Below are positions 324 to 21,502 of a DNA stretch of 32,000 nt, in pieces. The notes beneath the pieces were generated by a model. That model had not been told where the DNA came from, did no database searches, and saw only the letters and a program-made list of their open reading frames with translations. Origin of the DNA: an uncultured Pelagibacteraceae bacterium (GTDB lineage: Bacteria > Pseudomonadota > Alphaproteobacteria > Pelagibacterales > Pelagibacteraceae); contig CACLKR010000008.1 of assembly GCA_902607625.1 (NCBI GenBank), forward strand, positions 12,426 through 44,425. Direction: 5' to 3'. Position 1 is the first letter of the stretch. Every line of letters starts with the position of its first letter. Position numbers and translations under genes: made by a program.

Positions 324-354
324 TCCCCAATTCTCTCAAACAAAAATTCAAAAA

Positions 355-379: not shown

Positions 380-399
380 ATGTCTGCTCTAAAAACATT

Positions 400-440: not shown

Positions 441-505
441 CGTTATACTCGTATTTGTAAGTGCATCGATTCCTAAATATAGTGTAATTATTTCTAAAAT
501 AATAA

Positions 506-2988: not shown

Positions 2989-3043
2989 ATGCCACCTTCC
3001 AAAAAATTGTTGTCTTTTGAATTGCTTTGTAATTGCTTGATAT

Positions 3044-3072
3044 AGTGATGAAGAGTGATGAAGGATTTTCAG
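3044..3072. repeat. Right flanking repeat of the R-M cassette: AGTGATGAAG-AGTGATGAAGG-ATTTTCAG
   Basis: Direct-repeat match to 411-440, differing by one missing G and one extra T. Confidence 0.9.
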
Positions 3073-3125
3073 ATATGTTAGATAAAACAATACTTATTGA
3101 TTACCAGTATGAGAATGTAACCCGC

Positions 3126-3803: not shown

Positions 3804-3805
3804 CT

Positions 3806-4852: not shown

Positions 4853-6164
4853 TTGCTAGATCCTCAATTTTAACCGAGCTTTCATTACCAGTTTCAAGAT
4901 TTTTTAATGTTGCTTTTCCAGATTTTATTTCGTCATCGCCATACAAAATAACAGCTGGAGATCCAATCTTATTTGCATACTCCATTTGTTTCTTTAATTT
5001 ACCTTCTCCTGGATAAATCTCAGAACTGATATTTGATATTCTAAGTTTATTTAATATCCCAACATATTCTTTGTTTTTGCTTTTATCAAAAACACATATG
5101 ACTATTGGTCGTACAGTCTTTATTTTAAAATCTTTTTTTTGCATCAAAGCAAACACGAGTCTATCAAGACCAATTGATATGCCAGTTGCAGGACAATCAA
5201 AATTTCCAAAATTGCTTACAAGGTTATCGTATCTTCCCCCTCCGCCTATTGATCCAAATTGAATGGCTTGTCCTTTTAAATTTTTTACCTCAAAATTTAA
5301 ATTTACCTCAAAAATAGGGCCTGTGTAATATTCCAAACCTCGTATAACAGAAGGATCGAATTTGAAATTTTTAAAATTATAATCTTGAAATATTTCAACA
5401 ATTTCTAAAACGTCTTCGCTGTCAGGCGTTTTGCTCTTTAAAGTATTTTCAATTATTTTAACCTGACCACTTTTAAGGTTTGCCCCTTTTGTGTAATCTC
5501 CAGATTTATCTTTTCTGCCTTCTCCAAGAAGTTTCTTTGCCTCTCCCCATCCAAGTCTATCAATTTTATCAAGGGCGCGTAGTGTGGTTGATATTTGGTC
5601 TTTTGATTTAATTTTTAATTTTTCAAATAATTTATCAGTGAATTTTCTAGAAGAAATCTTCACAGTGTAATCTGCCTTATCTAATCCACACCTTTCTAAT
5701 ATCTCAGATATTAATACACAAAGTTCTGCATCGGCTTGTAAATTGTTAGTACCAACATAATCTGCATCAAATTGTAAAAATTCTCTATACCTGCCAGGTC
5801 CAGGTTTTTCATTTCTCCAGACCGTTCCTAATTGATAGCGTTTAAAAGGTCTAGGAAGCTCAAGGTAGTTTTTTGCAACGTATCTTGCCAAGGGAGCTGT
5901 AAGGTCATATCGCAGTGACAACCATTTTTTTTCATCTCTAAAAGAAAATACTCCTTCATCTGGCCTTTCTTTGTCAGGTAAAAATTTTCCAATACTATCC
6001 GTATACTCGAAGCTTGGTGTTTCGAGATATTGAAAACCGTATTTAATCATAACTTCTTTAATATTAGAAATTATGAAATCTCGGGTTAATAATTCTTGTT
6101 CTTGTCTATCTATAAAACCTAAAGGTAATTCCTTAGAGGGTTTTAACTTCTTTTCTTTTACCAT
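4830..6164 (-). CDS. hisS: Histidine--tRNA ligase
   Basis: Class II motifs RYREFLQFDAD and GGGGRYDNLV are present, plus a C-terminal anticodon-binding domain. 444 aa. Confidence 0.93.
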   Translation of the reverse strand: MVKEKKLKPSKELPLGFIDRQEQELLTRDFIISNIKEVMIKYGFQYLETPSFEYTDSIGKFLPDKERPDEGVFSFRDEKKWLSLRYDLTAPLARYVAKNYLELPRPFKRYQLGTVWRNEKPGPGRYREFLQFDADYVGTNNLQADAELCVLISEILERCGLDKADYTVKISSRKFTDKLFEKLKIKSKDQISTTLRALDKIDRLGWGEAKKLLGEGRKDKSGDYTKGANLKSGQVKIIENTLKSKTPDSEDVLEIVEIFQDYNFKNFKFDPSVIRGLEYYTGPIFEVNLNFEVKNLKGQAIQFGSIGGGGRYDNLVSNFGNFDCPATGISIGLDRLVFALMQKKDFKIKTVRPIVICVFDKSKNKEYVGILNKLRISNISSEIYPGEGKLKKQMEYANKIGSPAVILYGDDEIKSGKATLKNLETGNESSVKIEDLANEIKKLL

Positions 6165-7596: not shown

Positions 7597-8856
7597 TTAT
7601 TTTAATCTTTTAATTTTAGCTCCACAATTAGATAGTTTATTCTCTATTTCCTCATAACCTCTATCTAAGTGATATATTCTATTTAAAATAGTTTTTCCCT
7701 TTGCAACAAGACCGGCTAGCACTAGACAAACTGAAGCTCTTAAATCAGTAGCCATTATCTCGGCTCCATAAAGTTTACTTCCACCATAAATCTTTGCTTT
7801 ATTACCTAAGATTTGAATATGAGCGCCCATTCTTCTTAATTCAGAAACATGCATAAAGCGATTTTCGAAAATATTTTCTTTTATTGTTGAAATTCCTTCA
7901 GCCCTTGTCATTAGAACCATCAATTGAGCTTGTAAGTCAGTTGGAAAACCTGGATATGGTTTAGTTATAACATTAATACTTTTCATTTTTTTTGGACTCG
8001 TAACAATTATATAATTTTTTTTCTTTATTATTTTTACTTTCATTTTGTTTAATAAATTAATTTCAGTGGACATAATTTTTGGGTTAATATTGGTAATCTT
8101 TGTGTCACCATTTGTTAATGCAGCCGCAATGATATAAGTTCCTGCTTCTATTCTGTCAAAAATAACTCTGTGCGTTGTTGATTTTAATTTTTTAACTCCA
8201 AAAACATCTATACTTCTTTTGCCAACTTTATTAATTTTACATCCTAATTTTTTTAAAAAATTAATTAGATCCTGCACCTCTGGTTCTGATGCGCAATTTC
8301 TTAGTTTGGTTTTACCCTTCGAAAAACATGACGCAATTAATATATTTTCTGTAGCACCAACGGATATTTTTGGAAACTTAATCAAACAACCTTTCAAACC
8401 TTTTTTTGCTGAAGCTACAATATATCCATTCTTAACTTTGATTCTTGCCCCCATTTTTTTTAGTGCTTTTAAATGTAAATCTATTGGCCTCTGTCCTATA
8501 GAGCATCCGCCTGGTAGAGACACCTTGGCTTTTCTATATTTTGCTAATAGAGGACCCAAAACCAAAACGCCTGCTCGCATTGTTTTAAGAAGATTGTAAG
8601 GAGCAAATGTCTTTAATGCATTATTGTTAATAATCTCGATTATTTTTTTTCTTTTGTTTAGTTTAACAGATGATCCAATAGCGCTTAGAAGAGTGGTCAT
8701 TGTTTCGACATCATGCACAATTGGTACGTTTTTTATTATGACTTTTTTGTTGGTTAATATTGTTGCAGCAAGTATTGGAAGAGTGGCATTTTTGGATCCC
8801 GAAATTGTTATTGTTCCAGATATTTTTCTTCCACCTTTAATTTCCAATTTCTGCAT
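7597..8856 (-). CDS. murA: UDP-N-acetylglucosamine 1-carboxyvinyltransferase
   Basis: ISGSKNATLPILAA is present. The active-site Cys is in LPGGCSIGQRPIDLH. 419 aa. Confidence 0.93.
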   Translation of the reverse strand: MQKLEIKGGRKISGTITISGSKNATLPILAATILTNKKVIIKNVPIVHDVETMTTLLSAIGSSVKLNKRKKIIEIINNNALKTFAPYNLLKTMRAGVLVLGPLLAKYRKAKVSLPGGCSIGQRPIDLHLKALKKMGARIKVKNGYIVASAKKGLKGCLIKFPKISVGATENILIASCFSKGKTKLRNCASEPEVQDLINFLKKLGCKINKVGKRSIDVFGVKKLKSTTHRVIFDRIEAGTYIIAAALTNGDTKITNINPKIMSTEINLLNKMKVKIIKKKNYIIVTSPKKMKSINVITKPYPGFPTDLQAQLMVLMTRAEGISTIKENIFENRFMHVSELRRMGAHIQILGNKAKIYGGSKLYGAEIMATDLRASVCLVLAGLVAKGKTILNRIYHLDRGYEEIENKLSNCGAKIKRLK

Positions 8857-8867
8857 TAATTTTAAAA

Positions 8868-9422
8868 TTATACTTTTGGTAAAGTGACGCCGATTTGTTT
8901 CATATATTTTCCATTTCTTTTTTCATAGGTTATAGTTGGTTCTTCGTTACCTTTTAAGAAAATAAACTGAGCAGCACCTTCGTTCGCATAAATTTTCGCA
9001 GGAAGTGGTGTAGTGTTAGAAAATTCAAGAGTAACATGACCTTCCCAACCTGGTTCAAGTGGAGTAACATTGACAATTATTCCACATCTTGCATAAGTTG
9101 ATTTACCTAAGCATATAACCAAAATATCTTTTGGTATTTTAAAATATTCTACTGTACTTGCTAATGCGAAAGAATTTGGTGGTATTATACATTCGTCAAC
9201 CTTTCTTGATACAAAACTATTATTTTTAAAATTTTTTGGATCAACTACCGCCGAGTCGACATCTGTAAAAATTTTGAACTCATTTGAAACTCTAGCATCA
9301 TAACCAAAAGATGATAATCCGTAAGAAATTATCTTGCCTTTTTTTTGTTTAGAAATAAATGGACGAATCATTTTTTTTTCTAGAGCCATTTTTTTAATCC
9401 ATCGATCTGATAAAATGCTCAT
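8868..9422 (-). CDS. dcd: dCTP deaminase
   Basis: [12 protein letters not shown].. N-terminus, ..SSFGYDARV.. and ..[12 protein letters not shown].. motifs. 184 aa. Confidence 0.9.
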
Positions 9423-9546
9423 TTGATATTGAATATTTTTTTATTGATTTTGTTTAGAAAAATTTTTCTTTTCTTAAGATTACTTCTTAATGACTTTTCG
9501 ACTCTTTTCTTTCTCAGTTCTCTTTTTGAATTTATTCGCATCCATT

Positions 9547-9750
9547 TTATTTCTGACTTGGATTTGTTAAATCATCTAAAGTTATTGTTTTTTTAATATC
9601 ATGCCTTTTAATTTCTTCTTTTGTTACAGGCGCAGAATCTGAAGACAACAACCTCTTTGCCTTGCGCTGAGCTAGTCTTGCTTTCCGTTTTGCTTCCTTC
9701 AGCATAGCCCTCTCACCTCTTTTTGATTTGTAATCGTAATGTATGCCCAT
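9547..9750 (-). CDS. Small basic hypothetical protein; the true start may be the internal ATG at Met16
   Basis: The 67 aa ORF is visibly more GC-rich than its surroundings. AGAGGTGA lies 7 nt upstream of the internal ATG (MLKEAKRKARLAQRKAKR..). No family is recognised. Confidence 0.5.
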   Translation of the reverse strand: MGIHYDYKSKRGERAMLKEAKRKARLAQRKAKRLLSSDSAPVTKEEIKRHDIKKTITLDDLTNPSQK

Positions 9751-9805
9751 AAATTTTCCATCTATTGATAATAGTTTTTACTTTGTTGTTTACTGTATTG
9801 TCAAG

Positions 9806-10054
9806 TTACTTAAATAATATGGCAATTTTTTGCTTACCGAAAAACTTTATATTTGATAATTCTAATTTTACGGGAGCCATGTATAACTCATTTGGTAAAG
9901 TACTTCCATAATAATGCAAAAGTCGTGTATTTTTATTCAATCTACATTCACTTTGAAACAAGAGAGGATTAAAAAAACGCTCATCATTAACAATTGCTTT
10001 CTGACTTGATCTCATGTTAGTGGGACCGCTGACTACAATTATTGCAGTCAACAT
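9806..10054 (-). CDS. Hypothetical 82 aa ORF, possibly a gene remnant
   Basis: Open frame only. Its last ~20 codons are part of a repeat family also found at 15567-15596 and 16481-16513. No family is recognised. Confidence 0.3.
   Translation of the reverse strand: MLTAIIVVSGPTNMRSSQKAIVNDERFFNPLLFQSECRLNKNTRLLHYYGSTLPNELYMAPVKLELSNIKFFGKQKIAILFK
9827..9872. repeat. Island repeat family, copy A
   Basis: TTTTTGCTTACCGAAAAACTTTATATTTGATAATTCTAATTTTACG. The left part matches copy B with 2 mismatches in 30. The right part matches copy C with 2 mismatches in 33. Confidence 0.85.
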
Positions 10055-10121
10055 ATATACAGATCGTGAGTCAAATTAACTCAAGAATTAATTTGATTTG
10101 TGCGCTAAAAAAAATGTTTAA

Positions 10122-11234
10122 TTACTTCTTTAACAAAATATTTTTAATATCTCTTTTTGTTATTTCTATTGGATTATTAGATAATCTTTGATCATTAACT
10201 CCTGATAATATTTTTGGAAGATTGTCTTTTATGTTAATTCCTAATTTGGAAAAATTATTTTCTAAGCCTGCTCTCAATTTAATTCTATTTATAAAAAGAT
10301 TAAGCTCATTAATATTTAATGTATTAGAAACATTAAATATTTTTTTGTATCTTTTTACTAAATCAAATTTACAATTTGAATGTTGGATATTTTCAAAATT
10401 AAATTTTAAAAAATCATTTAATGTTAAAGATACTGCATGTCCATGACTGATTCCATAGTGAGCTGTAAAAGGATAGGACAATGCGTGAGGAGCTGTAGTT
10501 TTAGATATTGATATTGCTTTACCAGAATAATTAGCAGCCACACACATATTGTATGAATTTGTTATAGTTGGATTTTTTAAATGTTCTAAAAAATATTTAA
10601 GTGAAATTCTTAGAGATTTTAAAGCAAATTCTACACTTTCTTTCGTAGATTTTTTTGAAATAACAGATTCAATAGCTTGTGATATTGCGTCAAAACCCGA
10701 TGAGGCTTTTAAAGTTTTTCCTACTTTTAAAACAAATTCAGGAATTATTATAAAATAATTTGGTTTTAATAGTTCACTTTCAACCGAAAATTTAATTTTA
10801 CCCATATATATAACTGCATTTGAAGTCACTTCAGCTCCTGTACCAGCAGTAGTTGGTATTGCTAAAAGTTTCGTAAATTTTTTAATTTTGCCGTAATCAG
10901 AATTTATAATTTGCTTTGTTAAATTTTTTTCTGGATTAAGAATATTAGCCATTTTAGCATAATCAATTACAGATCCGCCTCCCACTGCTATTATCAAGTC
11001 TGGTTTTATACGCCTGGTATATAAAATTATTTTTTTAAGTTCTTTGATTTCTGGATATTTATTTTTTTTTAATAACAAATAAGTTTCTTTGTCTTTTAAA
11101 ATTTTTTTTATGAGTTTTTCTGCTCCAGAAGCAAAATATGATTTTTTTCCAGAAATAATCAAAATCTTTTTAAAGAGTTTCTGATTTAATAATTTCTTTA
11201 AAGTAGAAAATGTATTATTCGAAAAATTGACCAT
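10122..11234 (-). CDS. Iron-containing (group III) alcohol dehydrogenase; putative phosphonoacetaldehyde reductase yielding 2-hydroxyethylphosphonate
   Basis: VGGGSVIDYAKMA and HALSYPFTAHYGISHGHAV are Fe-ADH motifs. It lies immediately downstream of ppd in the same operon. Confidence 0.75.
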   Translation of the reverse strand: MVNFSNNTFSTLKKLLNQKLFKKILIISGKKSYFASGAEKLIKKILKDKETYLLLKKNKYPEIKELKKIILYTRRIKPDLIIAVGGGSVIDYAKMANILNPEKNLTKQIINSDYGKIKKFTKLLAIPTTAGTGAEVTSNAVIYMGKIKFSVESELLKPNYFIIIPEFVLKVGKTLKASSGFDAISQAIESVISKKSTKESVEFALKSLRISLKYFLEHLKNPTITNSYNMCVAANYSGKAISISKTTAPHALSYPFTAHYGISHGHAVSLTLNDFLKFNFENIQHSNCKFDLVKRYKKIFNVSNTLNINELNLFINRIKLRAGLENNFSKLGINIKDNLPKILSGVNDQRLSNNPIEITKRDIKNILLKK

Positions 11235-11238
11235 TTAA

Positions 11239-12354
11239 TTAGGCTTTAATCATAAAATTTTTCACAATTTTTTTCAAACTACCTGATTTTGGTCTCATTA
11301 AATTAGACATTGATTTGTTTTTTATTTTTATTTCTAAAAAACTTGGCCCACTTGATCTAATAAAATCTTTCATTTTTTTATTTAATTCCTTTTTATTTTT
11401 AATAATAAAGAATTTTTTGTAATTCAAGCTTTTAGTCAAATTTTTAAAATTAATAGTATCAGCATTGGTTAATTGACCTCCAACAGATTCATGAGAATTA
11501 TTATTTAATAAAATGTGTTTAAAATTTTTTTTTGCATATAATCCTGCTGAATTAAGTGAACCAAGATGCATCAATATAGAACCATCTCCGTCTAAACAAA
11601 TTGTTTGATTTTTTGTAAAAAGAGAAGTCCCTAAAGCGACCATTGTTGTGTGGCCCATTCCACCAACCATATAAAAATCATTTCCTTTCTTATAATTTTT
11701 AATTAACCTAATTTGCATTAGTTCCCTTGAAGTAAAACCAACTGTTGAAATAATATTTGTTTTATTTTTTATATTTTGTAGTAAATTTTTAATCACTTCT
11801 TCTCTTTTCAAATTTCTCCTATCTGTTTTTTTCCTTTCTATAGTTTGTTGATTTAAAAGGATATTTTTTTCTATTAGACAAGCGACTGGTTTTTTGTTCC
11901 TTTTTGATATTTCAATAATCCTATTTAATTTTTTTAAATCATTTTTATTTCTCAACAAACAATATTTGATGTCCATTAACTTAAGTAATTCTCTTGTTAT
12001 CTCTCCCTTAACTTTGTGCTGTGGCTCATCTTTAACGTTTGGAGAACCGCGCCAACCTATTAATAATAGCATCGGTATGGAATAAACTTTGCTATGAGCT
12101 ACAGCTATCAATGGATTAATAGCATTTCCTAATCCGGAATTTTGAAGATATACGCACGCAATTCTTTTTGTTGACAAGTAATAACCTATGCCAATTGAAA
12201 TTGCAGATCCTTCGTTTGCTGCAATAATATGTTTGTTTTTTTTTAATTTACCAAAATAATTAGATAAATTCTTTAAAACACTATCAGGAACACCAGTAAA
12301 GAAAGAAACTTTATTTTTTTTTAAGGTATCAAATATTTTTTTTGCTAAAATCAC
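11239..12354 (-). CDS. ppd: Phosphonopyruvate decarboxylase (ThDP-dependent)
   Basis: The N-terminal GVPDSVLKNL.. pyrimidine-binding region and the ThDP motif GGMGH..LDGDGSILMHLGSL..NNNSHES are present. 371 aa. It is adjacent to pepM. Confidence 0.85.
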   Translation of the reverse strand: MILAKKIFDTLKKNKVSFFTGVPDSVLKNLSNYFGKLKKNKHIIAANEGSAISIGIGYYLSTKRIACVYLQNSGLGNAINPLIAVAHSKVYSIPMLLLIGWRGSPNVKDEPQHKVKGEITRELLKLMDIKYCLLRNKNDLKKLNRIIEISKRNKKPVACLIEKNILLNQQTIERKKTDRRNLKREEVIKNLLQNIKNKTNIISTVGFTSRELMQIRLIKNYKKGNDFYMVGGMGHTTMVALGTSLFTKNQTICLDGDGSILMHLGSLNSAGLYAKKNFKHILLNNNSHESVGGQLTNADTINFKNLTKSLNYKKFFIIKNKKELNKKMKDFIRSSGPSFLEIKIKNKSMSNLMRPKSGSLKKIVKNFMIKA

Positions 12355-12356
12355 AA

Positions 12357-13661
12357 CTAAATAAGATTTATTACTTCATTAATTGAACTTATTTTTTTTT
12401 CGGCCTCAAAAGACCTTTGGTTTTTTAAAATCATTTTGGCCACATTCAATATAGCTGGGTGAATCGCTCTTAAAAAATGATTTGCGTAAATAACAACTTT
12501 AAATCCATTATTAATTAACTCATGTTCGTAAGTTCTTGAATATGTAGAAGGAACAGCTATTAAAGGTTTAAAAAACTTACTCTTTGAAAAATTTTTGGAA
12601 AAGGAAAAAATTTGATTAGGATATTTTTCTTTGCTATGAATTAGTATTGCATTGGCTCCAGCTTGTGAATAAGCCTCGGCTCTACGCATTGCATCTTTCA
12701 AATCTTTTCCAAGTATAAAGCTCTCGATCCTAGCAATAATAAATAGATCGTCTGAAATTTTTGCCTCTTTTGCTTTTTTTAATTTTTTACAAAAGTTTTC
12801 TATACTATCTTGTTTGACACCTACTTGGTTTTTAAAAAGTGAATTTCTCTTTAAACCAACTTTATCCTCAATAACCACTGCAGAAATACCAACTCTTTCT
12901 AAGGTTCTAATTAAGTAAGAAATATGTTCAATTTTTCCTCCATTGTCAGCATCAAATATTATTGGTTTCGTAGTCACGTCTAAGATTTCATTTAAGCCTA
13001 AAATTCTTGTAGAATAGTCCACAGCTTGGTTGTCTGGTTTACCTCTTATTGCAGAATCTGTTAAGCTCGAAGACCACATTCCATCGAATTCTAAAAAATT
13101 TTTATTTTTTATTAATTTTAAATTTTCAGCAATTAGTCCAGTAAAAGCATTGTGTGATTCGATAATTCTTACAATTTTTTTTGCATCAATTAATCTTTTT
13201 AATTTTGATTTCCTGGTTTCTGGTGAAGTGCCCAACTCAATAATTTTATTTTTGATTTTGGAAGATGATATATTTTTAGTATACTTAGGTTCGACTAGTT
13301 TGCCTGACCATTTTTTTAAAGTTTTGATCACTTGTTCTCTTATTTTTTTTTGAATACCAAATTTCCAGTCATCTCCGTGTACTACGTAATGAGGTTTTAT
13401 AGACAATAAGTTCTTTGTATAATCCAATGAATCTTGCGGCAAAACTTTTTTTACCAATTTAATATTCTTTAAAACTATTTCACGTTGTTTGTAGTTGAGA
13501 TGAGGTAGTTTTTTATATGAAGATATAGCTGAATCGGTTAACAAGCCAACAGTAACTTCGCCAAGTTTACTTGCTATTTTTAAAATATTTATATGACCTT
13601 CATGTAAAATATCTGCGGCAAAACCTACGTAAACTTTTTTTATATTTTTATTTTTTTTCAT
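12357..13661 (-). CDS. pepM: Bifunctional cytidylyltransferase-like domain / phosphoenolpyruvate mutase
   Basis: The N-terminal ~140 aa carry VGFAADILHEGHINIL (HxGH) and ..KNISSSKI.. (RTxGISTT-like). The C-terminal ~290 aa carry ..WSSSLTDSAIRGKPD.., ..FDADNGG.. and VIEDKVGLKRNSL, which matches the PEP-mutase signature EDKxxxxxNS. Confidence 0.9.
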   Translation of the reverse strand: MKKNKNIKKVYVGFAADILHEGHINILKIASKLGEVTVGLLTDSAISSYKKLPHLNYKQREIVLKNIKLVKKVLPQDSLDYTKNLLSIKPHYVVHGDDWKFGIQKKIREQVIKTLKKWSGKLVEPKYTKNISSSKIKNKIIELGTSPETRKSKLKRLIDAKKIVRIIESHNAFTGLIAENLKLIKNKNFLEFDGMWSSSLTDSAIRGKPDNQAVDYSTRILGLNEILDVTTKPIIFDADNGGKIEHISYLIRTLERVGISAVVIEDKVGLKRNSLFKNQVGVKQDSIENFCKKLKKAKEAKISDDLFIIARIESFILGKDLKDAMRRAEAYSQAGANAILIHSKEKYPNQIFSFSKNFSKSKFFKPLIAVPSTYSRTYEHELINNGFKVVIYANHFLRAIHPAILNVAKMILKNQRSFEAEKKISSINEVINLI

Positions 13662-13675
13662 TTAATATGAGTACT

Positions 13676-14206
13676 TTAAACAATTTTTGATATTTTTTTT
13701 ACTAAATTATTTGCCAAATCCTGGGTAGTTTTTTTGAAGTTATTATTTATTACTATGTCTGGTTGTTTTGGAAGTTCTGGTTTAATTGTAATACCCACAA
13801 TATCTTCTGAGCTTTTTTTATGGTAAATTTTTTTCTTTTTTAATTTTATAATCTTTTTAAGATCAGCTTTAATATAAATCTCTATATAATTATCTACGTT
13901 ATCTCTGCACCATTTTCGTGCAGAATGCATCATACCTACAACGGCAAATATAAGATTAATTTTTTTGTCGGTAATAGATTTTGCAAATTTGCACATTTTC
14001 TTGGAAGACAACACTCTTTCACTATAAGTATACTTATCAATTTTAAATATCTTTCTTAGATTGTCTCCACTCACTAACAATGTGGGGCCATAAAGTCTTG
14101 CTATATCTTTTTTGATTTTTTTACCTATTGTGGTTTTACCTGATCCTGAAAGACCAGAAATTCTAAACAAAATTCCCTTGTTTTGATTTTTTTTTAGTTT
14201 TTTCAT
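13676..14206 (-). CDS. cysC: Adenylylsulfate (APS) kinase-like P-loop kinase
   Basis: GLSGSGKTT Walker A motif and ..VSGDNLR.. (LDGDNxR-like). 176 aa. It lies 14 nt upstream of pepM. Confidence 0.75.
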   Translation of the reverse strand: MKKLKKNQNKGILFRISGLSGSGKTTIGKKIKKDIARLYGPTLLVSGDNLRKIFKIDKYTYSERVLSSKKMCKFAKSITDKKINLIFAVVGMMHSARKWCRDNVDNYIEIYIKADLKKIIKLKKKKIYHKKSSEDIVGITIKPELPKQPDIVINNNFKKTTQDLANNLVKKISKIV

Positions 14207-14285
14207 TCCAATATATAGCCTGTACTAAATTTTTTACACCATCATCATGTGTAGTGTTCTATATTAATGTAAATCATGCTTTACT

Positions 14286-14324
14286 GTTCAATTATTGAAC
14301 GATATAAATGTTCAACACTTGAAC
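14286..14324. promoter_or_regulatory. Two copies of the palindrome GTTCAA-N3-TTGAAC; candidate operator in the divergent promoter region
   Basis: GTTCAATTATTGAAC is at 14286-14300 and GTTCAACACTTGAAC at 14310-14324, with centres 24 bp apart. They lie in the 256-bp spacer between the cysC-pepM operon and the sulfotransferase gene. Confidence 0.45.
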
Positions 14325-14462
14325 ATAGTTATGAGTGATAATCAAGACTATTTTGCTACTTTAAAAAAAACCCAAATAAAATTAATTATATATATCTGTT
14401 ATCTTAAAAATCATATCTTAAAAATTATTATAAACCGGGGTATATAGAAAATAGGTTTCTTT

Positions 14463-15560
14463 ATGAAAATATTACTTTTAGTTGCTTGTAGTAGAAGTGG
14501 TGCAGATTTTTTTCAAAGTTTACTTGATGGCCACTCTCAAATACTTCAATTTCCAGGAAAATTACTAACTGATAATAATTTTAATGAAATGTTAAATTTA
14601 AAAGATCTCAATAAAATTCCAGAAAAATTTATCAACTTATATCCTTATTTTTTTAATTCTAAATTAAATAAAATTGAAAATCATCATCGTCTGGGAAAAA
14701 AAAGGAATAAATCTTTTAAAGTTAATAAAGAAAAATTCATAAAAAATTTTATTAAATTATCTAATAATAAAAGAAATTTAACTAAGCTAAACATACTAAA
14801 AAATCTTCATATAGCTTACGACCTTACAAAAGACAAAAAAAAACAAAAAGCAAAAATTATTCTTATTCATACTCATCTAATAAGTTATACAAAAAAATTT
14901 ATAAAATTTATGAATATAAAAAATATTTCAATTATACTCACCATGAGAAATCCATTATCTGCAATTAACTCTCCAGTTAAAAACTGGCTAAATTATCAAA
15001 ATGGCAAACATTTTTTTCCAATAAATTTAGATTTCCACCTAGACCAAACCTTTAATGGTATAATCAAGTTAGTACGCCTGAGGGAAAAAATTTTTGTAGT
15101 TCAGCTTGAGAAATTACATCGAGAACATAAAAAAGTAATGCTCGATTTTTGCAGAATTTTTAAAATAAAGTATGAAAAATGTCTAAAAAAATCTACCTTT
15201 ATTAATCTTCAATGGTGGGGTGATGCAATTAGTGGAAGGAGAGTTTCTGGTATTAATAAAAATTTTAATGTAAATATAGATCAAAAATTGTTTTTTTTAA
15301 GAGATGTCAAATTTTTTGAATGTCTAGCAAAAGATATAATAAAATTTTACAAATATAATTTTACAGCTGAAAATAAAAAAAAAACTTACTTTAACTTTTT
15401 ACCAATGAAATGCGAATTCCTTATATGGAAAAATACTTTTAAACAGAAAAGAATCAAGCATATATTTAGTATTCCATTTTTTTTCGTAAAAAGAATTTTT
15501 TTATTCAATAAATTTTCTATAAAAAATAAATATTTTCCTTATTCCATAGGATCAAAATAA
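14463..15560 (+). CDS. Sulfotransferase family protein
   Basis: The N-terminal VACSRSGADFFQSLL is 5'-PSB loop, RSGTT-like. ..TMRNPLSAINS.. is 3'-PB, RxPxxxxxS-like. 365 aa. It is divergent from the APS kinase. Confidence 0.6.
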   Translation: MKILLLVACSRSGADFFQSLLDGHSQILQFPGKLLTDNNFNEMLNLKDLNKIPEKFINLYPYFFNSKLNKIENHHRLGKKRNKSFKVNKEKFIKNFIKLSNNKRNLTKLNILKNLHIAYDLTKDKKKQKAKIILIHTHLISYTKKFIKFMNIKNISIILTMRNPLSAINSPVKNWLNYQNGKHFFPINLDFHLDQTFNGIIKLVRLREKIFVVQLEKLHREHKKVMLDFCRIFKIKYEKCLKKSTFINLQWWGDAISGRRVSGINKNFNVNIDQKLFFLRDVKFFECLAKDIIKFYKYNFTAENKKKTYFNFLPMKCEFLIWKNTFKQKRIKHIFSIPFFFVKRIFLFNKFSIKNKYFPYSIGSK

Positions 15561-15566
15561 TCATTA

Positions 15567-15596
15567 TTTTTACTTACCGAAAAATTTTATATTTGA
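15567..15596. repeat. Island repeat family, copy B (left half only)
   Basis: TTTTTACTTACCGAAAAATTTTATATTTGA. On the minus strand it would encode ..SNIKFFGK*, the same peptide as in copy A. Confidence 0.8.
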
Positions 15597-15661
15597 ATCA
15601 AAAGATATGAAAGATATGATTTATTCTAAATTTAACAATATAATTTGTTTAAACCCCTAAT

Positions 15662-16402
15662 TTAAATTTCTCCGCTAAGAGATTTGTTAGTTTTATTTTT
15701 ACTATTCTTTTTATCATAAAAATATTTTTCATACATTGATCCATATTTTAGGGGAGTATATGTGTAGTAAAGTGTTTTTCTATCAAAATTCGATTTATTT
15801 TTTTTTGAGCGGTGTGGACAGGTATTGCTAAATATAACAACATCACCAACGTCTAAATCTATTACCTTAAATTCTAATTTTTTTTCAACTTCAGGAAGTA
15901 AATCAGGTGTGCCGTTTTTTTTTGTCTTTGACAAAAGTTTATTAAAAGATTCTTTTTGAGCGTTAGAGATTTCAATTGTTCCATTCTCTGTATTGCAAGG
16001 GTCTAGAGCAATTAAAACATTAACAAAAAAATCACCGTATTCATACCAACCCTTCTTATCTTCATTATTTTCATTTTTGAATATATAAATTCCATCATAA
16101 TGAGCATAAAAACCCTCACCCTCAGGTGGTTTAGCATTAAATTTATCTTTAAAAATAGTAAACTCAAAATTGAAAAATTCCTTTAAAAGATTTAATATTT
16201 TTTTATTAGCAGCTTTTAAACCTTCGCCTTTGTCGTATAGTCTTTCTATTCTTTTTAAATTATCTTTTCTGTCATAGTAAATATCTACATTTTTTTTAAC
16301 AGAATTTATTTCATTAATTATTTTATTAATTAAAATTTTGTCAACGGCATTTTCCATTTTAAAAAAACCAAAATTTTCGTATTCTTTTTTTAAGTTTTCC
16401 AT
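15662..16402 (-). CDS. Phytanoyl-CoA dioxygenase (PhyH) family Fe(II)/2-oxoglutarate oxygenase
   Basis: ..FNAKPPEGEGFYAHYDG.. (HxD), ..ALDPCNTENGTIEIS.. and ..GDVVIFSNTCPHRSKKNKSNFDRKTLYYTY.. (distal His and Arg) follow the PhyH family pattern. Confidence 0.75.
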   Translation of the reverse strand: MENLKKEYENFGFFKMENAVDKILINKIINEINSVKKNVDIYYDRKDNLKRIERLYDKGEGLKAANKKILNLLKEFFNFEFTIFKDKFNAKPPEGEGFYAHYDGIYIFKNENNEDKKGWYEYGDFFVNVLIALDPCNTENGTIEISNAQKESFNKLLSKTKKNGTPDLLPEVEKKLEFKVIDLDVGDVVIFSNTCPHRSKKNKSNFDRKTLYYTYTPLKYGSMYEKYFYDKKNSKNKTNKSLSGEI

Positions 16403-16480
16403 AAATTTAATTAGATTTTAGTAATATAGTTTTTATGTCCTTTCAACAACTGTAAAAACACGCACTCCCTTGGCTGCGCA

Positions 16481-16513
16481 AAAAACTTTATATTTGATAT
16501 CTCTAATTTTACG
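16481..16513. repeat. Island repeat family, copy C (right half)
   Basis: AAAAACTTTATATTTGATATCTCTAATTTTACG. It lies in the 116-bp spacer between the aminotransferase and the PhyH gene. Confidence 0.85.
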
Positions 16514-16518
16514 TAAAC

Positions 16519-17580
16519 TTATATAGTCAAACTGAGAGAATTTTTTAGTTCACTCACAACCTTATCTGAAACAGACTCCTCCAAATTAAACCAGATAGGC
16601 AAACACAAATGTTTTAATGGAATTTCTTTACTCGCTCCAAGAGCATATTCATAAACTTTTGAGGTGGTAGTTTTAACTTTGGGCAATAATTCTGAAATAT
16701 TTTTTCTAGGAGAAATAATAGTAAATTTATAATAATTTCCACTAATTAAATCATTTTTTTGAGATATATATTTAATATCAAGGCTTTTACAAATTTCTAA
16801 ATATTTTTTAGCTATTTCAAATTTATTTTTTATTATTTCTGCATATTCTTTTATGACAGAATAAATCATTAAGGCCTGTAATTCGGCAAGTCTTATATTG
16901 CAACCAATGTTCATTTTTCGTTTGAAACGATCATAGGCGATAAAATCTCTCATTAAATCTCCGATATTGTTGTCATTCGTTACCACCACACCACCTTCGC
17001 CCGCAAAAATTGCTTTGGTTGAATAATAAGAATATACTCCAGCATTTCCAAAAGTCCCTGAAAATTTTTTATTTAGTGTCGAGCCAAAACTGTGTGCGCT
17101 ATCCTCGATCAAAATAATATTTTTCTCCTTGCAAAATTTTACGATTTTTTCAATATCTGGATTAATTATTCCTCCAATATCACTTAGGATGATGACCAAT
17201 TTCTCTGTTTCTTTATTATAACTATTAACAGCTTTCTTTAAATCTTCAAAACTCGGCATCAACGTCTCAAGCCTACAATCAATAACATTTGTAAGATTAT
17301 AACCTGCCGTTTTTGTCATTGTTTTTACTCCATACATAGTATTCGATTGAATCATGACATCAGTTCTTCCATAATATTCTTTATAAATTAGCAAAAGAGC
17401 AACTATGCCGCTGCCATTTGAATTAACACCAATTGCATTTTTTACATTAGTAATAATTTTTATTTTTTTTGAAAGTTCTTCGTTCCAAGGTCCTTCAGCA
17501 AGTTTACCTGTCTTAAAGATTTCATCTTGATTGTTTTTAAAAAATTCAATCGAGTTTTTTGGAAGTTTAATTGTGCTCAT
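16519..17580 (-). CDS. DegT/DnrJ/EryC1/StrS-family PLP-dependent aminotransferase
   Basis: ..IEDSAHSFGS.. and ..YSYYSTKAIFAGEGGVVVTND.. (PLP lysine context). 353 aa. Confidence 0.8.
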   Translation of the reverse strand: MSTIKLPKNSIEFFKNNQDEIFKTGKLAEGPWNEELSKKIKIITNVKNAIGVNSNGSGIVALLLIYKEYYGRTDVMIQSNTMYGVKTMTKTAGYNLTNVIDCRLETLMPSFEDLKKAVNSYNKETEKLVIILSDIGGIINPDIEKIVKFCKEKNIILIEDSAHSFGSTLNKKFSGTFGNAGVYSYYSTKAIFAGEGGVVVTNDNNIGDLMRDFIAYDRFKRKMNIGCNIRLAELQALMIYSVIKEYAEIIKNKFEIAKKYLEICKSLDIKYISQKNDLISGNYYKFTIISPRKNISELLPKVKTTTSKVYEYALGASKEIPLKHLCLPIWFNLEESVSDKVVSELKNSLSLTI

Positions 17581-17591
17581 TTTATTATAAT

Positions 17592-18836
17592 TTAATTTTG
17601 TAACTCACCCCAAATTGTCTTTTCAATCAGATCTGAAAATTTACCATCTTCTGAAAATGTACGAAAAACTTTTCTTGGGTTTTTCTTGTATACTATCCTA
17701 TAAAATTCGGGAGCCAAACTAAAAGCCAAAGAAAATTTCCCGGGAATAACTGACCAAACATTTTTATATTTAGAAACTGAATTGATATGAAATAAATAAT
17801 TCCTGTTCTCATTATTTAAGGATACTTCATTTTTTATACCCACATATTTTTTCACTACTTTAATTTCAGGATTTTGTTTTTTATGCTCACCAATCATAAA
17901 ATCAAAATATTTTTCTACTTCATCTTCTTGATTTAAACTTATGCCACCTATTAATCCATATGATTTACTTTTTGTTATAATATTTATGCATTTTTTTTTA
18001 AAACAGTCTAACTCTACGAAAGAATCTGAGTTTGGTTTTATATTTCTAACTACAGCGATTGGAGCAAAACTTTTTTTAATCTTAAAATCACTAAATTTTT
18101 CTATGCCTGCCCCTAAGCAAACCGCCATATTTTTAGCTTGAAATGTACCATTATTACAATTGGCTACTACATTCTCGTTTAAGTTTCTAATTTCAATAAG
18201 TTCATTATTTGTAAAAATCTCTAAACCATTATTTGCAGCAGTAGTTACCATATCACTTAGTAAATATCTTGAGTTGGTAGTAAAATCTGTTGTTTTGATT
18301 TTTAAAAATTTTTTATTACTTAAAATTATATTAATTAAATTTTTAATAATAGGAATATTGTATTTTGCAGTTAAGCTTTCCAAAATTCCAGCCCGACGAC
18401 GTAACCAATCGTGTCGACGAATTCTGTCAATTAAAGTAATTGATCTCGATACAGCATAAATCCATGGAATTATAAATTTTCTATTTTTTAACCTATATTT
18501 AAAATTCATATAATTCTCATTAAACCAACCTTTTTCGGTTTCTATAATTTTTAAACCATTTTCCGATGGCTTTAAATTCATTTTAGGAAAAGAAGAATAG
18601 AATTCTAAAAGATCATCCAATGAGCCTAAAACATATTTAAGTGTTTCCATTTTATCTTTTAGCAAAGTATATAAAGATCCTGTGTGAAACCACTCATGAA
18701 ATTCTCTTGTAGTTTCTGATGCTAACTTATTATTTTTTTCAATTAAGGCTACCGAATGCCCTTCTCTTGTTAAAATTTCACATAAAGATATACCAGCTAT
18801 ACCTCCACCGACAATAATCCAATCATAGGTTTTCAT
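17592..18836 (-). CDS. FAD-dependent oxidoreductase
   Basis: The N-terminal YDWIIVGGGIAGISLCEILTREGHSVALIEK is a Rossmann GxGxxG dinucleotide fold. 414 aa. Confidence 0.75.
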   Translation of the reverse strand: MKTYDWIIVGGGIAGISLCEILTREGHSVALIEKNNKLASETTREFHEWFHTGSLYTLLKDKMETLKYVLGSLDDLLEFYSSFPKMNLKPSENGLKIIETEKGWFNENYMNFKYRLKNRKFIIPWIYAVSRSITLIDRIRRHDWLRRRAGILESLTAKYNIPIIKNLINIILSNKKFLKIKTTDFTTNSRYLLSDMVTTAANNGLEIFTNNELIEIRNLNENVVANCNNGTFQAKNMAVCLGAGIEKFSDFKIKKSFAPIAVVRNIKPNSDSFVELDCFKKKCINIITKSKSYGLIGGISLNQEDEVEKYFDFMIGEHKKQNPEIKVVKKYVGIKNEVSLNNENRNYLFHINSVSKYKNVWSVIPGKFSLAFSLAPEFYRIVYKKNPRKVFRTFSEDGKFSDLIEKTIWGELQN

Positions 18837-19810
18837 TAATAAAAAAATTTATCTTTTAGTTTTTGTACTTCAGAATTTACAGAAAAGTTTAATTTTCCTG
18901 AGATAGCTTGTAATAGCTTAATGTGGCCAAAAATTAGCATTAGGCTAACAAATTCCTTTTCTCTAGACATAATTATTTTTTTTCCAGATTCTGTCAAATA
19001 GTTTGGAATAAATATCATGTCCATTTCTGCGGGAGATCGAGTCAAATGTCCTCCTATTTCTATCCATTCACAGGTCATATAATTTATTTTGTATAAGTGA
19101 TTTACTAATTCGCTCCAGTTGGGAATATTTTCATACATTGGAACAATCTGAACTTCTATTTTCATTAACAAAGGAAGATATTCTCCTAAACCTTTTAAAA
19201 TTTCAAGTTCCGATCCTTGCGTATCAATCTTTAAAAAATCCAAATGTTTTATATTCAGTTTATTTAAACTTTCTTTAACCGTTGTACACTCAATATCAAT
19301 TTCTTCTGAAACATCAAATAATGAAAAATTCTTTTTTTTATAATTGTATAAATCAAAGCCATCTTTGTTAGGTTTGTATACTGATGAACTGCCTGAGCGT
19401 TTACCTAAAACGTATAATTTTTTTTTACAATTTGTACTCCAAAGTCCCTTAGAAATAACTTTATAATTTTGTTTCCCTAATTTTTCTGCTTCACTCACAA
19501 TAGGTTCAACCATTATAGGTGCAAAAAATTTGTTATATTTTTCAGAAAATATACTAGCATTAAAGAAACCGCCCTGAGCCCCAACATCAAGTGCTACTAA
19601 TTTATTTTCTCCTAAAAATTTTGAAATAAAATTCCTATGATCGTCAATTTTGTGAGATTCAGATCGGAGCTTATTTAATTGATTTATTATCCTTGAATGA
19701 AATCTTGTTGCTATAAGAATTCTTGAGATAAATGGAATACATAAATAAATTATTTTAGATAATAATCTATAAAAAAACCTTATAATTTTTGATAATACAA
19801 GTTTAACCAT
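18836..19810 (-). CDS. FkbM-family SAM-dependent methyltransferase
   Basis: ..ALDVGAQGGF.. (motif I) and ..FLKIDTQGSELEILKG.. (FkbM signature). 324 aa. Confidence 0.75.
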   Translation of the reverse strand: MVKLVLSKIIRFFYRLLSKIIYLCIPFISRILIATRFHSRIINQLNKLRSESHKIDDHRNFISKFLGENKLVALDVGAQGGFFNASIFSEKYNKFFAPIMVEPIVSEAEKLGKQNYKVISKGLWSTNCKKKLYVLGKRSGSSSVYKPNKDGFDLYNYKKKNFSLFDVSEEIDIECTTVKESLNKLNIKHLDFLKIDTQGSELEILKGLGEYLPLLMKIEVQIVPMYENIPNWSELVNHLYKINYMTCEWIEIGGHLTRSPAEMDMIFIPNYLTESGKKIIMSREKEFVSLMLIFGHIKLLQAISGKLNFSVNSEVQKLKDKFFY

Positions 19811-19849
19811 TTCTGATCGAAACTATTTCATCAAAATTAATTGATCAAC

Positions 19850-20545
19850 TTATTTTTTAGTAAATGTCGTTAAGCCCAATTTTTTACCATTAATTCTTGA
19901 AGAGGAGCAATGAATATAACTTCTGTCCACAATAAGTGTTTCTCCGACTTTCCAATTATATATAAACTCCACTTCGAGTCCTTTTAGATTATTAATATCT
20001 ATATGTGTTAAATATTTTTTGTGAAATTCTTTATCAAATTCTTTGCTACCTAGGTGTGCGCATGATCTGTCATTTTGACCTTGCTTTGGTTTATAATTTA
20101 ATTCATCTTTATCAATAGTGAATGTTGTCGATTTTCCATACCATTTTTTTTTAAAAAAAATTGTATCACCTGGACCTATTAAAGGTGTAACTACCTGCTT
20201 ATAAATTATTGTTTCTTCATCAAATCCTGAGTCCACGTGCATTGGAAGAGGTGAAAAGCTTTCATGAAAGAGTCCATAATAATCTTCTCCCTTATCTGAT
20301 TTTAAAGAGTCCATTTTATAATCTCCTAATGCTTCTTTTAATCTATTAAAATATATTTTATCTAATTCTTTATTAAAATTTTGTTGCCAAGGTTTTTTTC
20401 TAACATTTTGTTTTTTGTTAAATGTAATTTCTGGTAAAATATTATAAAGTTCTTGAATCATTTTAATCTCTTTTTCAGAAAAAATATTAATTTTTTTTGG
20501 TGCATTTTCTAAACTTTTAATTTTATCTAAATGTACATGTCTCAT
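19850..20545 (-). CDS. Hypothetical protein, possibly a non-haem Fe(II) oxygenase (HxD..H)
   Basis: PMHVDSG (HxD) and, about 110 aa later, RSYIHCSSSR (distal His, Arg) suggest a double-stranded beta-helix oxygenase. No family is recognised. Confidence 0.35.
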   Translation of the reverse strand: MRHVHLDKIKSLENAPKKINIFSEKEIKMIQELYNILPEITFNKKQNVRKKPWQQNFNKELDKIYFNRLKEALGDYKMDSLKSDKGEDYYGLFHESFSPLPMHVDSGFDEETIIYKQVVTPLIGPGDTIFFKKKWYGKSTTFTIDKDELNYKPKQGQNDRSCAHLGSKEFDKEFHKKYLTHIDINNLKGLEVEFIYNWKVGETLIVDRSYIHCSSSRINGKKLGLTTFTKK

Positions 20546-20548
20546 ATT

Positions 20549-21274
20549 CTATTGTTTAAAAAAAAATTTTTTAATAAAAAAACCTGAAAGCAAAAGAACA
20601 AAAAAACCAATTATAGGAAGATAAATTTCTGGCGATTGAATAACTGGTAAAACACTGAGCTCAGCATTTTGATCAATTATCTTTTCAATACCACTGCCAA
20701 GGGCTACTACTACAAACGTTGTAGGAAGTGTTCCCACAAGAGTGGCAATAATATAATTTTTAGATGACATGTTAAAAAGAACAGGCAAAATGTTCTGTAT
20801 AGGAAAAGGAGTTCCTCCTCCTCCAATAAACCTAAAGGTCATAAAATATATTAACTCATTTTTATTAAAAAAATCTATAAATTTAGAAAATCTTGTTTTA
20901 AATTTTGATTCGATCAAATCGCTAAAAAATGTTTGTGCTAAACGATATAACAGAAATCCACCAATTGTATTCCCAAAAATTAGTATTAATGTTCCCAACC
21001 ATTTACCAAAAATAAAGCCAATTATTAAAGTAGGTAAAAACATAGGAGTTAATAACACATTCAAAAAAATAGTAATGATAAAAAAAATAATTGTCAGAAA
21101 GAAAATATTATTATCTTTGTATGTTAGGATTACTTCTCTATTTTCTTTAATTAAATCATAGCTAGTTAAATCTTTTAGATCAAAAGTTGACCAAAAAAAA
21201 TAAATAGCTACCCCAAGAATAGTTACATATGCGATCCCTAGGTAAATTTTAAAATTAGATGATTTCAAGTTCAT
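20549..21274 (-). CDS. TVP38/TMEM64 (DedA/SNARE-associated) family membrane protein
   Basis: Multiple hydrophobic spans and a ..GFIFGKWLGTLILIFGNTIGGFLLYRLAQ.. VTT-domain-like motif. 241 aa. Confidence 0.6.
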   Translation of the reverse strand: MNLKSSNFKIYLGIAYVTILGVAIYFFWSTFDLKDLTSYDLIKENREVILTYKDNNIFFLTIIFFIITIFLNVLLTPMFLPTLIIGFIFGKWLGTLILIFGNTIGGFLLYRLAQTFFSDLIESKFKTRFSKFIDFFNKNELIYFMTFRFIGGGGTPFPIQNILPVLFNMSSKNYIIATLVGTLPTTFVVVALGSGIEKIIDQNAELSVLPVIQSPEIYLPIIGFFVLLLSGFFIKKFFFKQ

Positions 21275-21353
21275 AGTTTAATTTTTAACTGTACTTATAT
21301 GTTCTTATTACCTATAAATAGCAAAAAATTTTAACAAGAAGCAAACAAATTTT

Positions 21354-21488
21354 ATGAAAAGAACATATCAACCAAGCCGAATTGTGCGAAAAAGAAGACA
21401 TGGATTTAGATCCAGAATGAAAAAAAAAGGCGGCCGGAAAACACTTGCAAGAAGAAGAGCTAAAGGTAGAAAAAAATTATCTACTTAA
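21354..21488 (+). CDS. rpmH: 50S ribosomal protein L34 (below the 60 aa cut-off of the ORF track)
   Basis: Hand translation gives [44 protein letters not shown]. It is immediately upstream of rnpA. Confidence 0.93.
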
Positions 21489-21502
21489 TTTATGTTCTAA
21501 AA

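Follow-up and report, generated by a model that had tools for sequence, protein, structure and literature searches.

How does a bacterium of the SAR11 type come to hold phosphonate genes amid a run of housekeeping genes, and what might these genes make? The question is raised by a 32-kb stretch of Pelagibacterales DNA from contig CACLKR010000008.1 (the whole stretch is referred to here as the window), in which a set of additional genes lies between murA and dcd (8868-9422) on one side and rpmH (21354-21488), rnpA, yidD and yidC on the other. Comparison with related contigs makes it likely that window positions ~9833-18834 represent a 9.0-kb mosaic accessory insertion at a hot spot between dcd and the gene of an FkbM-type methyltransferase, and that this insertion carries an operon for 2-hydroxyethylphosphonate (HEP) and its cytidine monophosphate conjugate (CMP-HEP). 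An initial annotation of the same DNA had located all of its listed open reading frames (ORFs) correctly and had given dcd and rpmH as the flanks, as found here. Most of its domain names were also borne out by Pfam and NCBIfam, namely iron-dependent alcohol dehydrogenase (Fe-ADH), phosphonopyruvate decarboxylase (Ppd), a fusion of cytidylyltransferase and phosphoenolpyruvate (PEP) mutase (CT-PepM), APS_kinase-like, PhyH, DegT, DAO-type flavin adenine dinucleotide (FAD) oxidoreductase, FkbM and VTT/DedA.

A probable accessory insertion between FkbM and dcd

The extent of the insertion was obtained from an empty-site relative, a 127-kb Pelagibacterales single-cell contig (L037) that was reached via a homologue of a 231-aa protein (unk231) encoded in the window. 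Its gene order is yidC-yidD-rnpA / DedA - 231-aa protein - FkbM - 67-aa ORF - dcd - murA. In nucleotide alignment, window 7604-9832 corresponds to L037 13949-11727 and window 18835-20546 to L037 11647-10000, and the borders are placed at about 9833 and 18834 because homology to L037 stops at 9832 and resumes at 18835. L037 has about 80 bp in place of the intervening sequence, which sets the size of the insertion at 9.0 kb and eight genes. The ~12-kb extent initially proposed has to be reduced accordingly, since the genes for DedA, unk231 and FkbM and two small ORFs on the dcd side belong to the conserved backbone. These three minus-strand genes, encoding the FkbM methyltransferase (PF05050; 18836-19810), unk231 (19850-20545) and the DedA/VTT membrane protein (PF09335; 20549-21274), occur in the same order by rnpA/rpmH in L037 and in L045-L050. 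The two small ORFs (9419-9750, minus strand), of 40 aa (9419-9541) and 67 aa (9547-9750), also lie outside the island, the latter being near-identical to L037 11809-12012 and both having equivalents of 40 and 65 aa ahead of dcd in L045-48.

Five further contigs (L045-49) share the same backbone and carry other cargo at the FkbM-dcd junction, comprising GT17, SxtJ-like, DUF5989 and carbamoyltransferase genes in L045-L048, with L049 ending within the cargo. As the junction can be empty (L037), filled with this alternative cargo or occupied by the phosphonate island, it is regarded as a hot spot for which at least three states are known. The empty site and the differing cargo likewise underlie the accessory status of the island, so that the strain-variable character proposed for it at the outset stands, the variant contig L044 described next being a further case.

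A 46-nt repeat occurs at the left edge of the insertion and, in part, at two places inside it. A full-length copy (c1, 9827-9872) forms the left edge, a second copy (c2, 15567-15596) consists of the left arm and a 17-nt core, and a third (c3, 16481-16513), located to the right of a segment encoding a PhyH-family oxygenase, consists of the core and the right arm. The core common to the c2 and c3 halves is AAAAAYTTTATATTTGA. The 884-bp PhyH segment (15597-16480) thus interrupts the 46-nt site, with the 17-nt core duplicated on either side. The Tara contig L044, which is 97-98% identical to the window, has the site intact between the genes for the sulfotransferase-fold protein (ST365) and the DegT aminotransferase; its homology to the window breaks at 15596, and it lacks exactly 15597-16480. 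The same contig also lacks 17728-18754, which corresponds to most of the FAD oxidoreductase. Judged from sequence anatomy, the flanks of the PhyH segment together with L044 are an attL/attR-like or target-duplication signature, and in the proposed mechanism modules would be gained and lost at the 46-nt site with its 17-nt core. L037 and L045 have degenerate versions of the site at the corresponding position, and the site was not found at other pepM loci. Two other identities of the repeat were considered and rejected: a terminator hairpin, given fold z-scores of -0.6 to +2.0, and an integron attC, since reading of the sequence revealed no RYYYAAC/GTTRRRY cores and an IntI is lacking.

Predicted chemistry of the phosphonate operon

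Three of the four operon genes, all on the minus strand, account for the predicted phosphonate core. The CT-PepM fusion (12357-13661) combines a Fom1-like cytidylyltransferase (residues ~10-142; PF01467) with a PEP mutase (residues ~150-434; PF13714). The PEP mutase domain scores 160.5 bits against PF13714 and 348.7 bits against TIGR02320 (cutoff 319.55), and bears the catalytic motif EDKVGLKRNS at residue 265. The EDKxxxxxNS motif is known to tell PepM from isocitrate-lyase paralogues (PMC6697681), and the score above cutoff together with the motif indicates that this PepM is genuine; such a paralogue, which the initial annotation had named among the findings that would weaken its pathway call, is not what the window encodes. 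The adjacent gene in the same operon (11239-12354) encodes Ppd, with 386.7 bits for the TIGR03297 equivalog against a cutoff of 312.5, and this adjacency fits the thermodynamic pull expected of the pair. Entry into phosphonate biosynthesis through PepM and Ppd, as originally claimed, is therefore well founded on both profiles and on the motif.

The cytidylyltransferase domain matches PF01467 at residues 17-138 and is 54% identical to the Fom1 cytidylyltransferase of PDB 5x3d (E 5.6e-47), which supports the earlier suggestion of a CMP-activated phosphonate. Fom1 turns HEP into CMP-HEP, and among PEP mutases a fusion to PF01467 is common, at 23.6% (PMC6697681). The last gene (10122-11234) encodes a protein with the Fe-ADH and ADH_Fe_C domains of Pfam, predicted to be a phosphonoacetaldehyde reductase in the role of PhpC/FomC. 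Its best NCBIfam match is Phn_Fe-ADH (TIGR03405; 137 bits, under cutoff), and in relatives the gene is always the third after PepM-Ppd. Enzymes of the PhpC type reduce phosphonoacetaldehyde to HEP (PMC8942020).

From these homologies we infer a core of four steps, in which PEP mutase would convert PEP to phosphonopyruvate, Ppd would decarboxylate the latter to phosphonoacetaldehyde, the Fe-ADH would reduce this to HEP and the Fom1-like domain would yield CMP-HEP. Among the window ORFs scanned there is no gene for Fom3 (the B12 radical-SAM methylase), FomD or the HppE/Fom4 epoxidase. The end products of MpnS, HEPD and HppE (methylphosphonate, hydroxymethylphosphonate and fosfomycin, respectively) were rejected, as no cupin-type candidate was found. 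Since candidates for Fom3, FomD, HppE, MpnS and HEPD are all lacking, the head group is likely to be HEP itself or a hydroxylated derivative of it.

This gene set had been said to match no textbook pathway. Actually, it fits closely the early steps of the Streptomyces fosfomycin pathway (Fom1/Fom2/FomC), with which it shares the three-gene logic of cytidylyltransferase-PepM, Ppd and Fe-ADH, the domain fusion and the predicted HEP and CMP-HEP intermediates. The two differ in that the window lacks Fom3, FomD and Fom4/HppE, meaning that the product would not be fosfomycin, and in that its operon has an extra APS-kinase-like gene. A second comparison can be made with the Pnt pathway (PntC/LicC-LicD; Rice et al. 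2019, PMC6697681), where a PepM-fused nucleotidyltransferase likewise activates a phosphonate ahead of surface transfer. However, the nucleotidyltransferase of the window is of the PF01467 and not the PF12804 type, its predicted substrate is HEP and not 2-aminoethylphosphonate, and there is no LicD-type transferase.

Related loci and the destination of the phosphonate

Relatives with a CT-PepM 75-82% identical to that of the window were compared for recurring partners. Over six contexts of the CT-PepM core, an APS-kinase-like gene was present in five, PhyH in four and a sulfotransferase-fold gene in three. In L033-35, one operon comprises the APS-kinase-like gene, CT-PepM, Ppd, Fe-ADH and PhyH (L035 ends within Fe-ADH), and is surrounded by a divergent helix-turn-helix (HTH) gene and a sulfotransferase gene, by an ABC exporter and, in L033/L034, by NeuB, GT2 and NeuA-like genes. 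The PhyH proteins of L033/L034, encoded directly after Fe-ADH, are 71-72% identical to that of the window. L036 has a TagF-like Glyphos_transf gene followed by CT-PepM, Ppd and Fe-ADH, with PhyH and a kinase gene convergent; L041 has the four-gene operon within a nonulosonic-acid cluster; and in L042 CT-PepM is found amid PhyH, HTH, sulfotransferase, DegT and FkbM genes. More distant loci from single amplified genomes (SAGs) have only the CT-PepM/Ppd/Fe-ADH trio in common.

The glycan-type neighbours found across these relatives (NeuB/NeuC/NeuA, GT2, TagF-like Glyphos_transf and the ABC exporter) bear on the fate of the product. In the proposed pathway the activated phosphonate would be esterified onto a cell-surface glycan or glycoprotein, and a surface glycan is the most likely destination in view of these neighbourhoods and of published work. 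The cell-surface role suggested from the start is in line with Acker et al. 2022.

Two kinds of locus depart from the common arrangement. In L042 (10001-12764) a CT-PepM 77% identical to that of the window has no adjacent Ppd or Fe-ADH gene, and the gene next to it encodes a 488-aa protein without known domain. Three SAG loci (L003-L005, 10001-10390) have a stand-alone cytidylyltransferase paralogue directly upstream of CT-PepM and no APS-kinase-like gene.

The kinase and the sulfotransferase-fold protein

The first gene of the operon (13676-14206, minus strand) encodes an APS-kinase-like P-loop kinase of 176 aa, named after the adenosine 5'-phosphosulfate (APS) kinases. It is linked to CT-PepM in L010/L011, L033-35, L036 and L041. 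The protein matches PF01583 above threshold (62.7 bits vs 21.1) and falls under the NCBIfam cutoffs (apsK, 65.4 vs 138.7; PRK05541, 114.5 vs 127). Three motifs, LDGD, S-P and DPKGLY, were defined as common to three solved APS kinases included in the alignment. All six PepM- or sulfotransferase-linked homologues compared have xSGD in place of LDGD and a KKKxIY-type sequence in place of DPKGLY, while S-P is replaced by G-M in five of them and by S-L in L022.

Divergent from the operon lies the gene for ST365 (14463-15560, plus strand), a 365-aa protein without significant Pfam match (E 0.032; Sulfotransfer_3, 14.9 bits vs 27); seven of nine relatives have a weak one. A profile-against-PDB search was unsuccessful at the sequence level. 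An AlphaFold2 model built on 40 homologues has a pLDDT of 92.6, and the top 28 Foldseek matches of this model in the PDB are all sulfotransferases that use 3'-phosphoadenosine 5'-phosphosulfate (PAPS), their probabilities reaching 1.0 and their TM-scores ranging from 0.3 to 0.56. The model thus supports a sulfotransferase fold, and of the original label of sulfotransferase the fold is what stands, with no significant Pfam match behind it. Residues R11, G13, R162 and P164 are invariant in the 40 homologues and S170 is nearly so; R11-S-G and R162...S170 might correspond to the 5'-phosphosulfate loop (PSB) and the 3'-phosphate-binding Arg/Ser (PB) motifs, in analogy with those of TPST.

Both proteins could be expected to act on a 3'-phosphorylated nucleotide donor, which might be PAPS, used for glycan sulfation, or a PAPS-like 3'-phospho-CMP-phosphonate. 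The most probable of the alternative readings is that the kinase is a true APS kinase and ST365 a PAPS-dependent sulfotransferase, glycan sulfation and phosphonylation being independent and co-located by chance. We regard this as quite plausible, if still somewhat on the improbable side. It agrees with the Pfam APS_kinase match above threshold, with the functional archaeal APS kinases that are the closest solved structures, with the fold and the conserved Arg/Ser positions of ST365, and with the ST365 homologue of L022, which is encoded beside an APS-kinase-like gene with no PepM nearby. It is at odds with the position of the kinase gene, which comes first in the PepM operon (14 nt from the next gene, or overlapping it), also in L010, L041 and L036, in whose vicinity no sulfotransferase was detected, with the failed NCBIfam cutoffs and clade-wide substitutions at LDGD, SP and DPKGLY, and with the lack of an ATP sulfurylase in the 32-kb window. 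SAR11 bacteria are also reported to be devoid of assimilatory sulfate activation, which likewise counts against it. The sulfation that the initial annotation had read from these two genes is consequently not established, as the kinase stays under curated APS-kinase cutoffs and differs from solved APS kinases at three blocks.

A more speculative possibility, which we put forward tentatively and consider doubtful, is that the kinase is no APS kinase and transfers phosphate to the 3'-OH of CMP-HEP, hydroxylated or not, in which case proteins of the ST365 type would be phosphonyl transferases releasing 3',5'-cytidine bisphosphate. Ordinary sulfation is at least as likely as such a donor, because L022 pairs an ST365 homologue with a kinase of this kind in the absence of PepM. 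A known parallel is the O-methyl phosphoramidate pathway of Campylobacter jejuni, in which Cj1415 is the APS-kinase-like member of the set, and where a cytidylyltransferase and this enzyme lead to a 3'-phosphorylated CDP-type donor for the capsule; the product there contains a P-N bond, in contrast to the P-C bond here. We know of no sulfotransferase fold in the Cj1421/1422 transferases. The C. jejuni Cj1415-1418 proteins make CDP-phosphoramidate 3'-phosphate (PMC11800397). If true, a 3'-phospho-CMP-phosphonate donor would parallel the Cj1415 step and explain the missing LicD-type enzyme, and sulfotransferase-fold proteins would be the long-sought enzymes that esterify HEP onto marine glycans.

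The L022 region itself (2438-5736) is a PepM-less glycan cluster that encodes, in a row, a pyruvate-kinase-barrel protein, the ST365 homologue, an APS-kinase-like protein of the divergent clade and a nucleotidyltransferase.

A portable block beside a satellite-like element

The four-gene operon forms part of a portable block of 4.2 kb (10030-14259, minus strand) that is shared with two contigs outside this junction. The block is 96.1% identical at the nucleotide level to Tara contig L010 over 4231 bp and 95% identical to L011, both having flanks unlike those of the window, and L011 provides independent support for the junction between block and neighbouring element seen in L010. The genes ahead of the block in L010 are that of a tyrosine integrase (516 aa), several unknown ones, and those of a family-A DNA polymerase (PolA), of a DnaD-like protein and of a small terminase (TerS) whose closest sequenced relatives are the TerS of Pelagibacter phages HTVC023P and HTVC027P. 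The integrase had no match among sequenced phages, and PolA had no relatives in IMG/VR and only distant matches among sequenced-phage PolA proteins. Neither att repeats nor a tRNA were found in L010, which ends 250 bp past the block.

Small terminases and DNA polymerases are features of Pelagibacter-associated phage satellites (VEIME module 6; Eppley et al. 2022, PMC9618062). The neighbour of the block in L010, with its tyrosine integrase, DNA polymerase and pelagiphage-related small terminase, corresponds to the description of this module; the likeness is one of gene content only, and none of these genes occurs in the window. It could be asked whether the island is what remains of a phage, or of a phage satellite, that had become integrated, with its phosphonate operon as a set of viral auxiliary genes. 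This idea draws on the 96%-identical block placed in L010 right after integrase, PolA, DnaD-like and pelagiphage-like TerS genes, on the resemblance of that gene set to VEIME module 6 and on a 96-kb IMG/VR contig with a distant CT-PepM-Ppd-FeADH trio. Nevertheless, the window holds no integrase, terminase or other phage gene, the block is not bounded by a tRNA or att repeats, and no close copy of the block was found in IMG/VR or in sequenced phages, for which reasons we deem a phage origin of the island unlikely.

Further observations concern these contigs. After the small terminase, L010 has a GC-rich structured intergenic stretch (8175-8300; fold z-score -2.9) and, at 8432-8462, a strong hairpin (z-score -4.1) that ends exactly where identity to the window starts, neither having an Rfam match. 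The APS-kinase-like gene of L010 (8515-9026) is split by a frameshift and is intact in L011, so pseudogenisation and assembly error are both possible. The viral-classed 96-kb contig just mentioned (L012; IMGVR_UViG_3300025133_000048) encodes the trio of CT-PepM (52% identical), Ppd and Fe-ADH adjoining PIN-PhoH, a PD-(D/E)XK nuclease and glycosyltransferases, and may represent a virus-encoded HEP pathway.

PhyH, DegT and the FAD oxidoreductase

The three remaining genes of the insertion lie on the minus strand between ST365 and FkbM. The first (15662-16402) encodes a PhyH-family Fe(II)/2-oxoglutarate oxygenase (PF05721), predicted to be a phosphonate C-hydroxylase. The iron triad H101-x-D103...H198 is present, the best NCBIfam match is the methylphosphonate hydroxylase PhnY* (NF052437; 58.3 bits vs a cutoff of 500), and there was no sequence match in the PDB. 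The protein probably acts as a hydroxylase on the phosphonate or its CMP conjugate. The second (16519-17580), which adjoins ST365 in L044, encodes a pyridoxal-phosphate-dependent aminotransferase of the DegT/DnrJ/EryC1 family and nucleotide-sugar type (PF01041, 142.9 bits), with PseC, QdtB and similar sugar aminotransferases as the closest solved structures. The third and right-most gene of the island (17592-18836), whose start overlaps the FkbM stop, encodes a DAO-type FAD-dependent oxidoreductase that matched known families at its N-terminal FAD-binding motif only. For DegT and the FAD oxidoreductase, a place as sugar- or glycan-tailoring passengers is more likely than one as phosphonate enzymes.

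A different role would follow if the whole 9 kb were a small-molecule pathway in which HEP is hydroxylated by PhyH, oxidised by the FAD oxidoreductase and transaminated by DegT to an amino-hydroxy phosphonate. A precedent for such a sequence is dehydrophos biosynthesis (DhpA-DhpD), which proceeds from HEP through a 2-oxoglutarate oxygenase, a kinase, an oxidoreductase and an aminotransferase. The insertion does encode an enzyme of each of these classes, and PhyH is weakly PhnY*-like. The enzyme families differ from those of dehydrophos, however, and the modules of the window are individually dispensable: L044, otherwise 97-98% identical, lacks PhyH and most of the FAD oxidoreductase. In addition, DegT is nearest to nucleotide-sugar aminotransferases, DegT and the FAD oxidoreductase were not found with other CT-PepM operons, and neither an exporter nor peptide-forming enzymes are encoded, all of which renders this pathway very improbable.

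Least tenable of all is the initial view of one coherent ~12-kb pathway of 11-13 genes reaching from dcd to rpmH, with DedA, unk231, FkbM, FAD oxidoreductase, DegT and PhyH as the tailoring operon for a novel phosphonate, which we consider highly improbable, for although these six genes share one strand with short gaps and genes for an FkbM-type methyltransferase and DegT also occur near CT-PepM in L042, the DedA, unk231 and FkbM genes are in the same place in L037 without the island and in L045-50 with different cargo, the unk231 family (1754 matches) is also found in unrelated contexts, and PhyH and FAD oxidoreductase are individually absent from L044. The supposed second operon thus crosses the boundary between backbone and insertion, and the coherence ascribed to the genes gives way to a mosaic, in which a block is shared with L010 and L044 does without PhyH and most of the FAD oxidoreductase.

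Points weighing against the proposed reading

Several points count against the reading of the island as a mosaic insertion with an operon for HEP and CMP-HEP destined for a surface glycan. The empty site comes from the one genome examined for it (L037). The repeat-based mechanism is drawn from anatomy alone, because the window has no recombinase, and the portable block may be cargo of the L010 element or just its neighbour. On the biochemical side, Fe-ADH and PhyH are far under the curated phosphonate-specific cutoffs, and it could be the phosphonate itself on which DegT and the FAD oxidoreductase act, in a dehydrophos-like manner. As the initial annotation had correctly remarked, the window encodes no glycosyltransferase or LicD-type protein; a TagF-like transferase and an exporter are also lacking. 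Finally, a phosphonate product has never been measured in any SAR11.

Other features of the window

Island and flanks do not differ in composition, the GC content of the island (0.23-0.30) being like that of the flanks. No integrase or recombinase gene was found in the window, and the nearest tRNAs are 2.5 kb off, outside the junction. Rfam and tRNA scans gave no hits in the island or in L010, and promoter and terminator scans gave site counts no higher than in shuffled sequence. Between the full-length repeat and the portable block lies an island-specific stretch without a credible gene (9873-10029), which is absent from L010 and L037; a mechanical ORF of 82 aa (9806-10054) had no family match.

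In marine metagenomes, unk231 has 1754 homologues; the family matches no Pfam domain, and many of its His, Asp and Trp residues are invariant. A paralogue 78% identical to unk231 (L038-L040) is encoded between an ABC-2 transporter and genes for GT17 and a 2-oxoglutarate oxygenase. Structure prediction for unk231 reached a pLDDT of only 37.6.

Elsewhere in the window, a type II restriction-modification pair formed by an N6/N4 DNA methylase (249 aa) and an AlwI-family endonuclease (578 aa) is located between the groEL 3' end and hisG (506-2988). Window 327-3108 has no counterpart in L037, which points to a second accessory insertion. The cumulative GC skew reaches its minimum at ~21000-21500, where gene orientation flips between DedA (minus) and rpmH (plus); a replication origin may be situated some 2.5 kb or less from the hot spot, but gene strand bias alone could give the same skew. 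A 481-aa ORF next to def (30546-31991) had no Pfam match.

Relation to published work and significance

It has been described that 18% of SAR11 cells have pepM, which belongs to the flexible genome and is found near glycan genes (Acker et al. 2022, PMC8931226); its flexible-genome status, its horizontal transfer and the pepM-ppd-phpC synteny in Pelagibacterales are already published. The locus studied here resembles the reported SAR11 and Prochlorococcus pepM clusters (Acker et al. 2022, PMC8931226; Lockwood et al. 2022, PMC9381506) in the organism group, the flexible-genome setting, the pepM-ppd-phpC core, the glycan-gene neighbourhoods of relatives and the proposed role in a surface phosphonoglycan. 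Searching the main text of these two papers gave no mention of this insertion site, of a cytidylyltransferase or sulfotransferase partner, or of mobile or phage elements. Literature searches likewise returned no report tying APS-kinase-like or sulfotransferase genes to phosphonate transfer, or pepM to pelagiphages. No description of the hot spot, of the portable block with its satellite-like neighbour, of the 46-nt site or of the recurrent partnership of kinase, PhyH and sulfotransferase-fold protein was found in these searches.

Esters of HEP and methylphosphonate on polysaccharides constitute a large share of marine dissolved organic phosphorus, the breakdown of methylphosphonate feeds aerobic methane production, and SAR11 is inferred to be a major phosphonate producer. 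In this setting, the locus gives a compact and well-bounded unit of 4-6 genes, together with a candidate enzyme pair for the missing activation and transfer steps. It also gives sequence evidence on how the trait moves among SAR11, in the form of a portable 4.2-kb block, a 46-nt insertion site and a nearby satellite-like element, and such evidence of movement is relevant to proposals that give the trait a negative-frequency-dependent, anti-phage or anti-grazer role.

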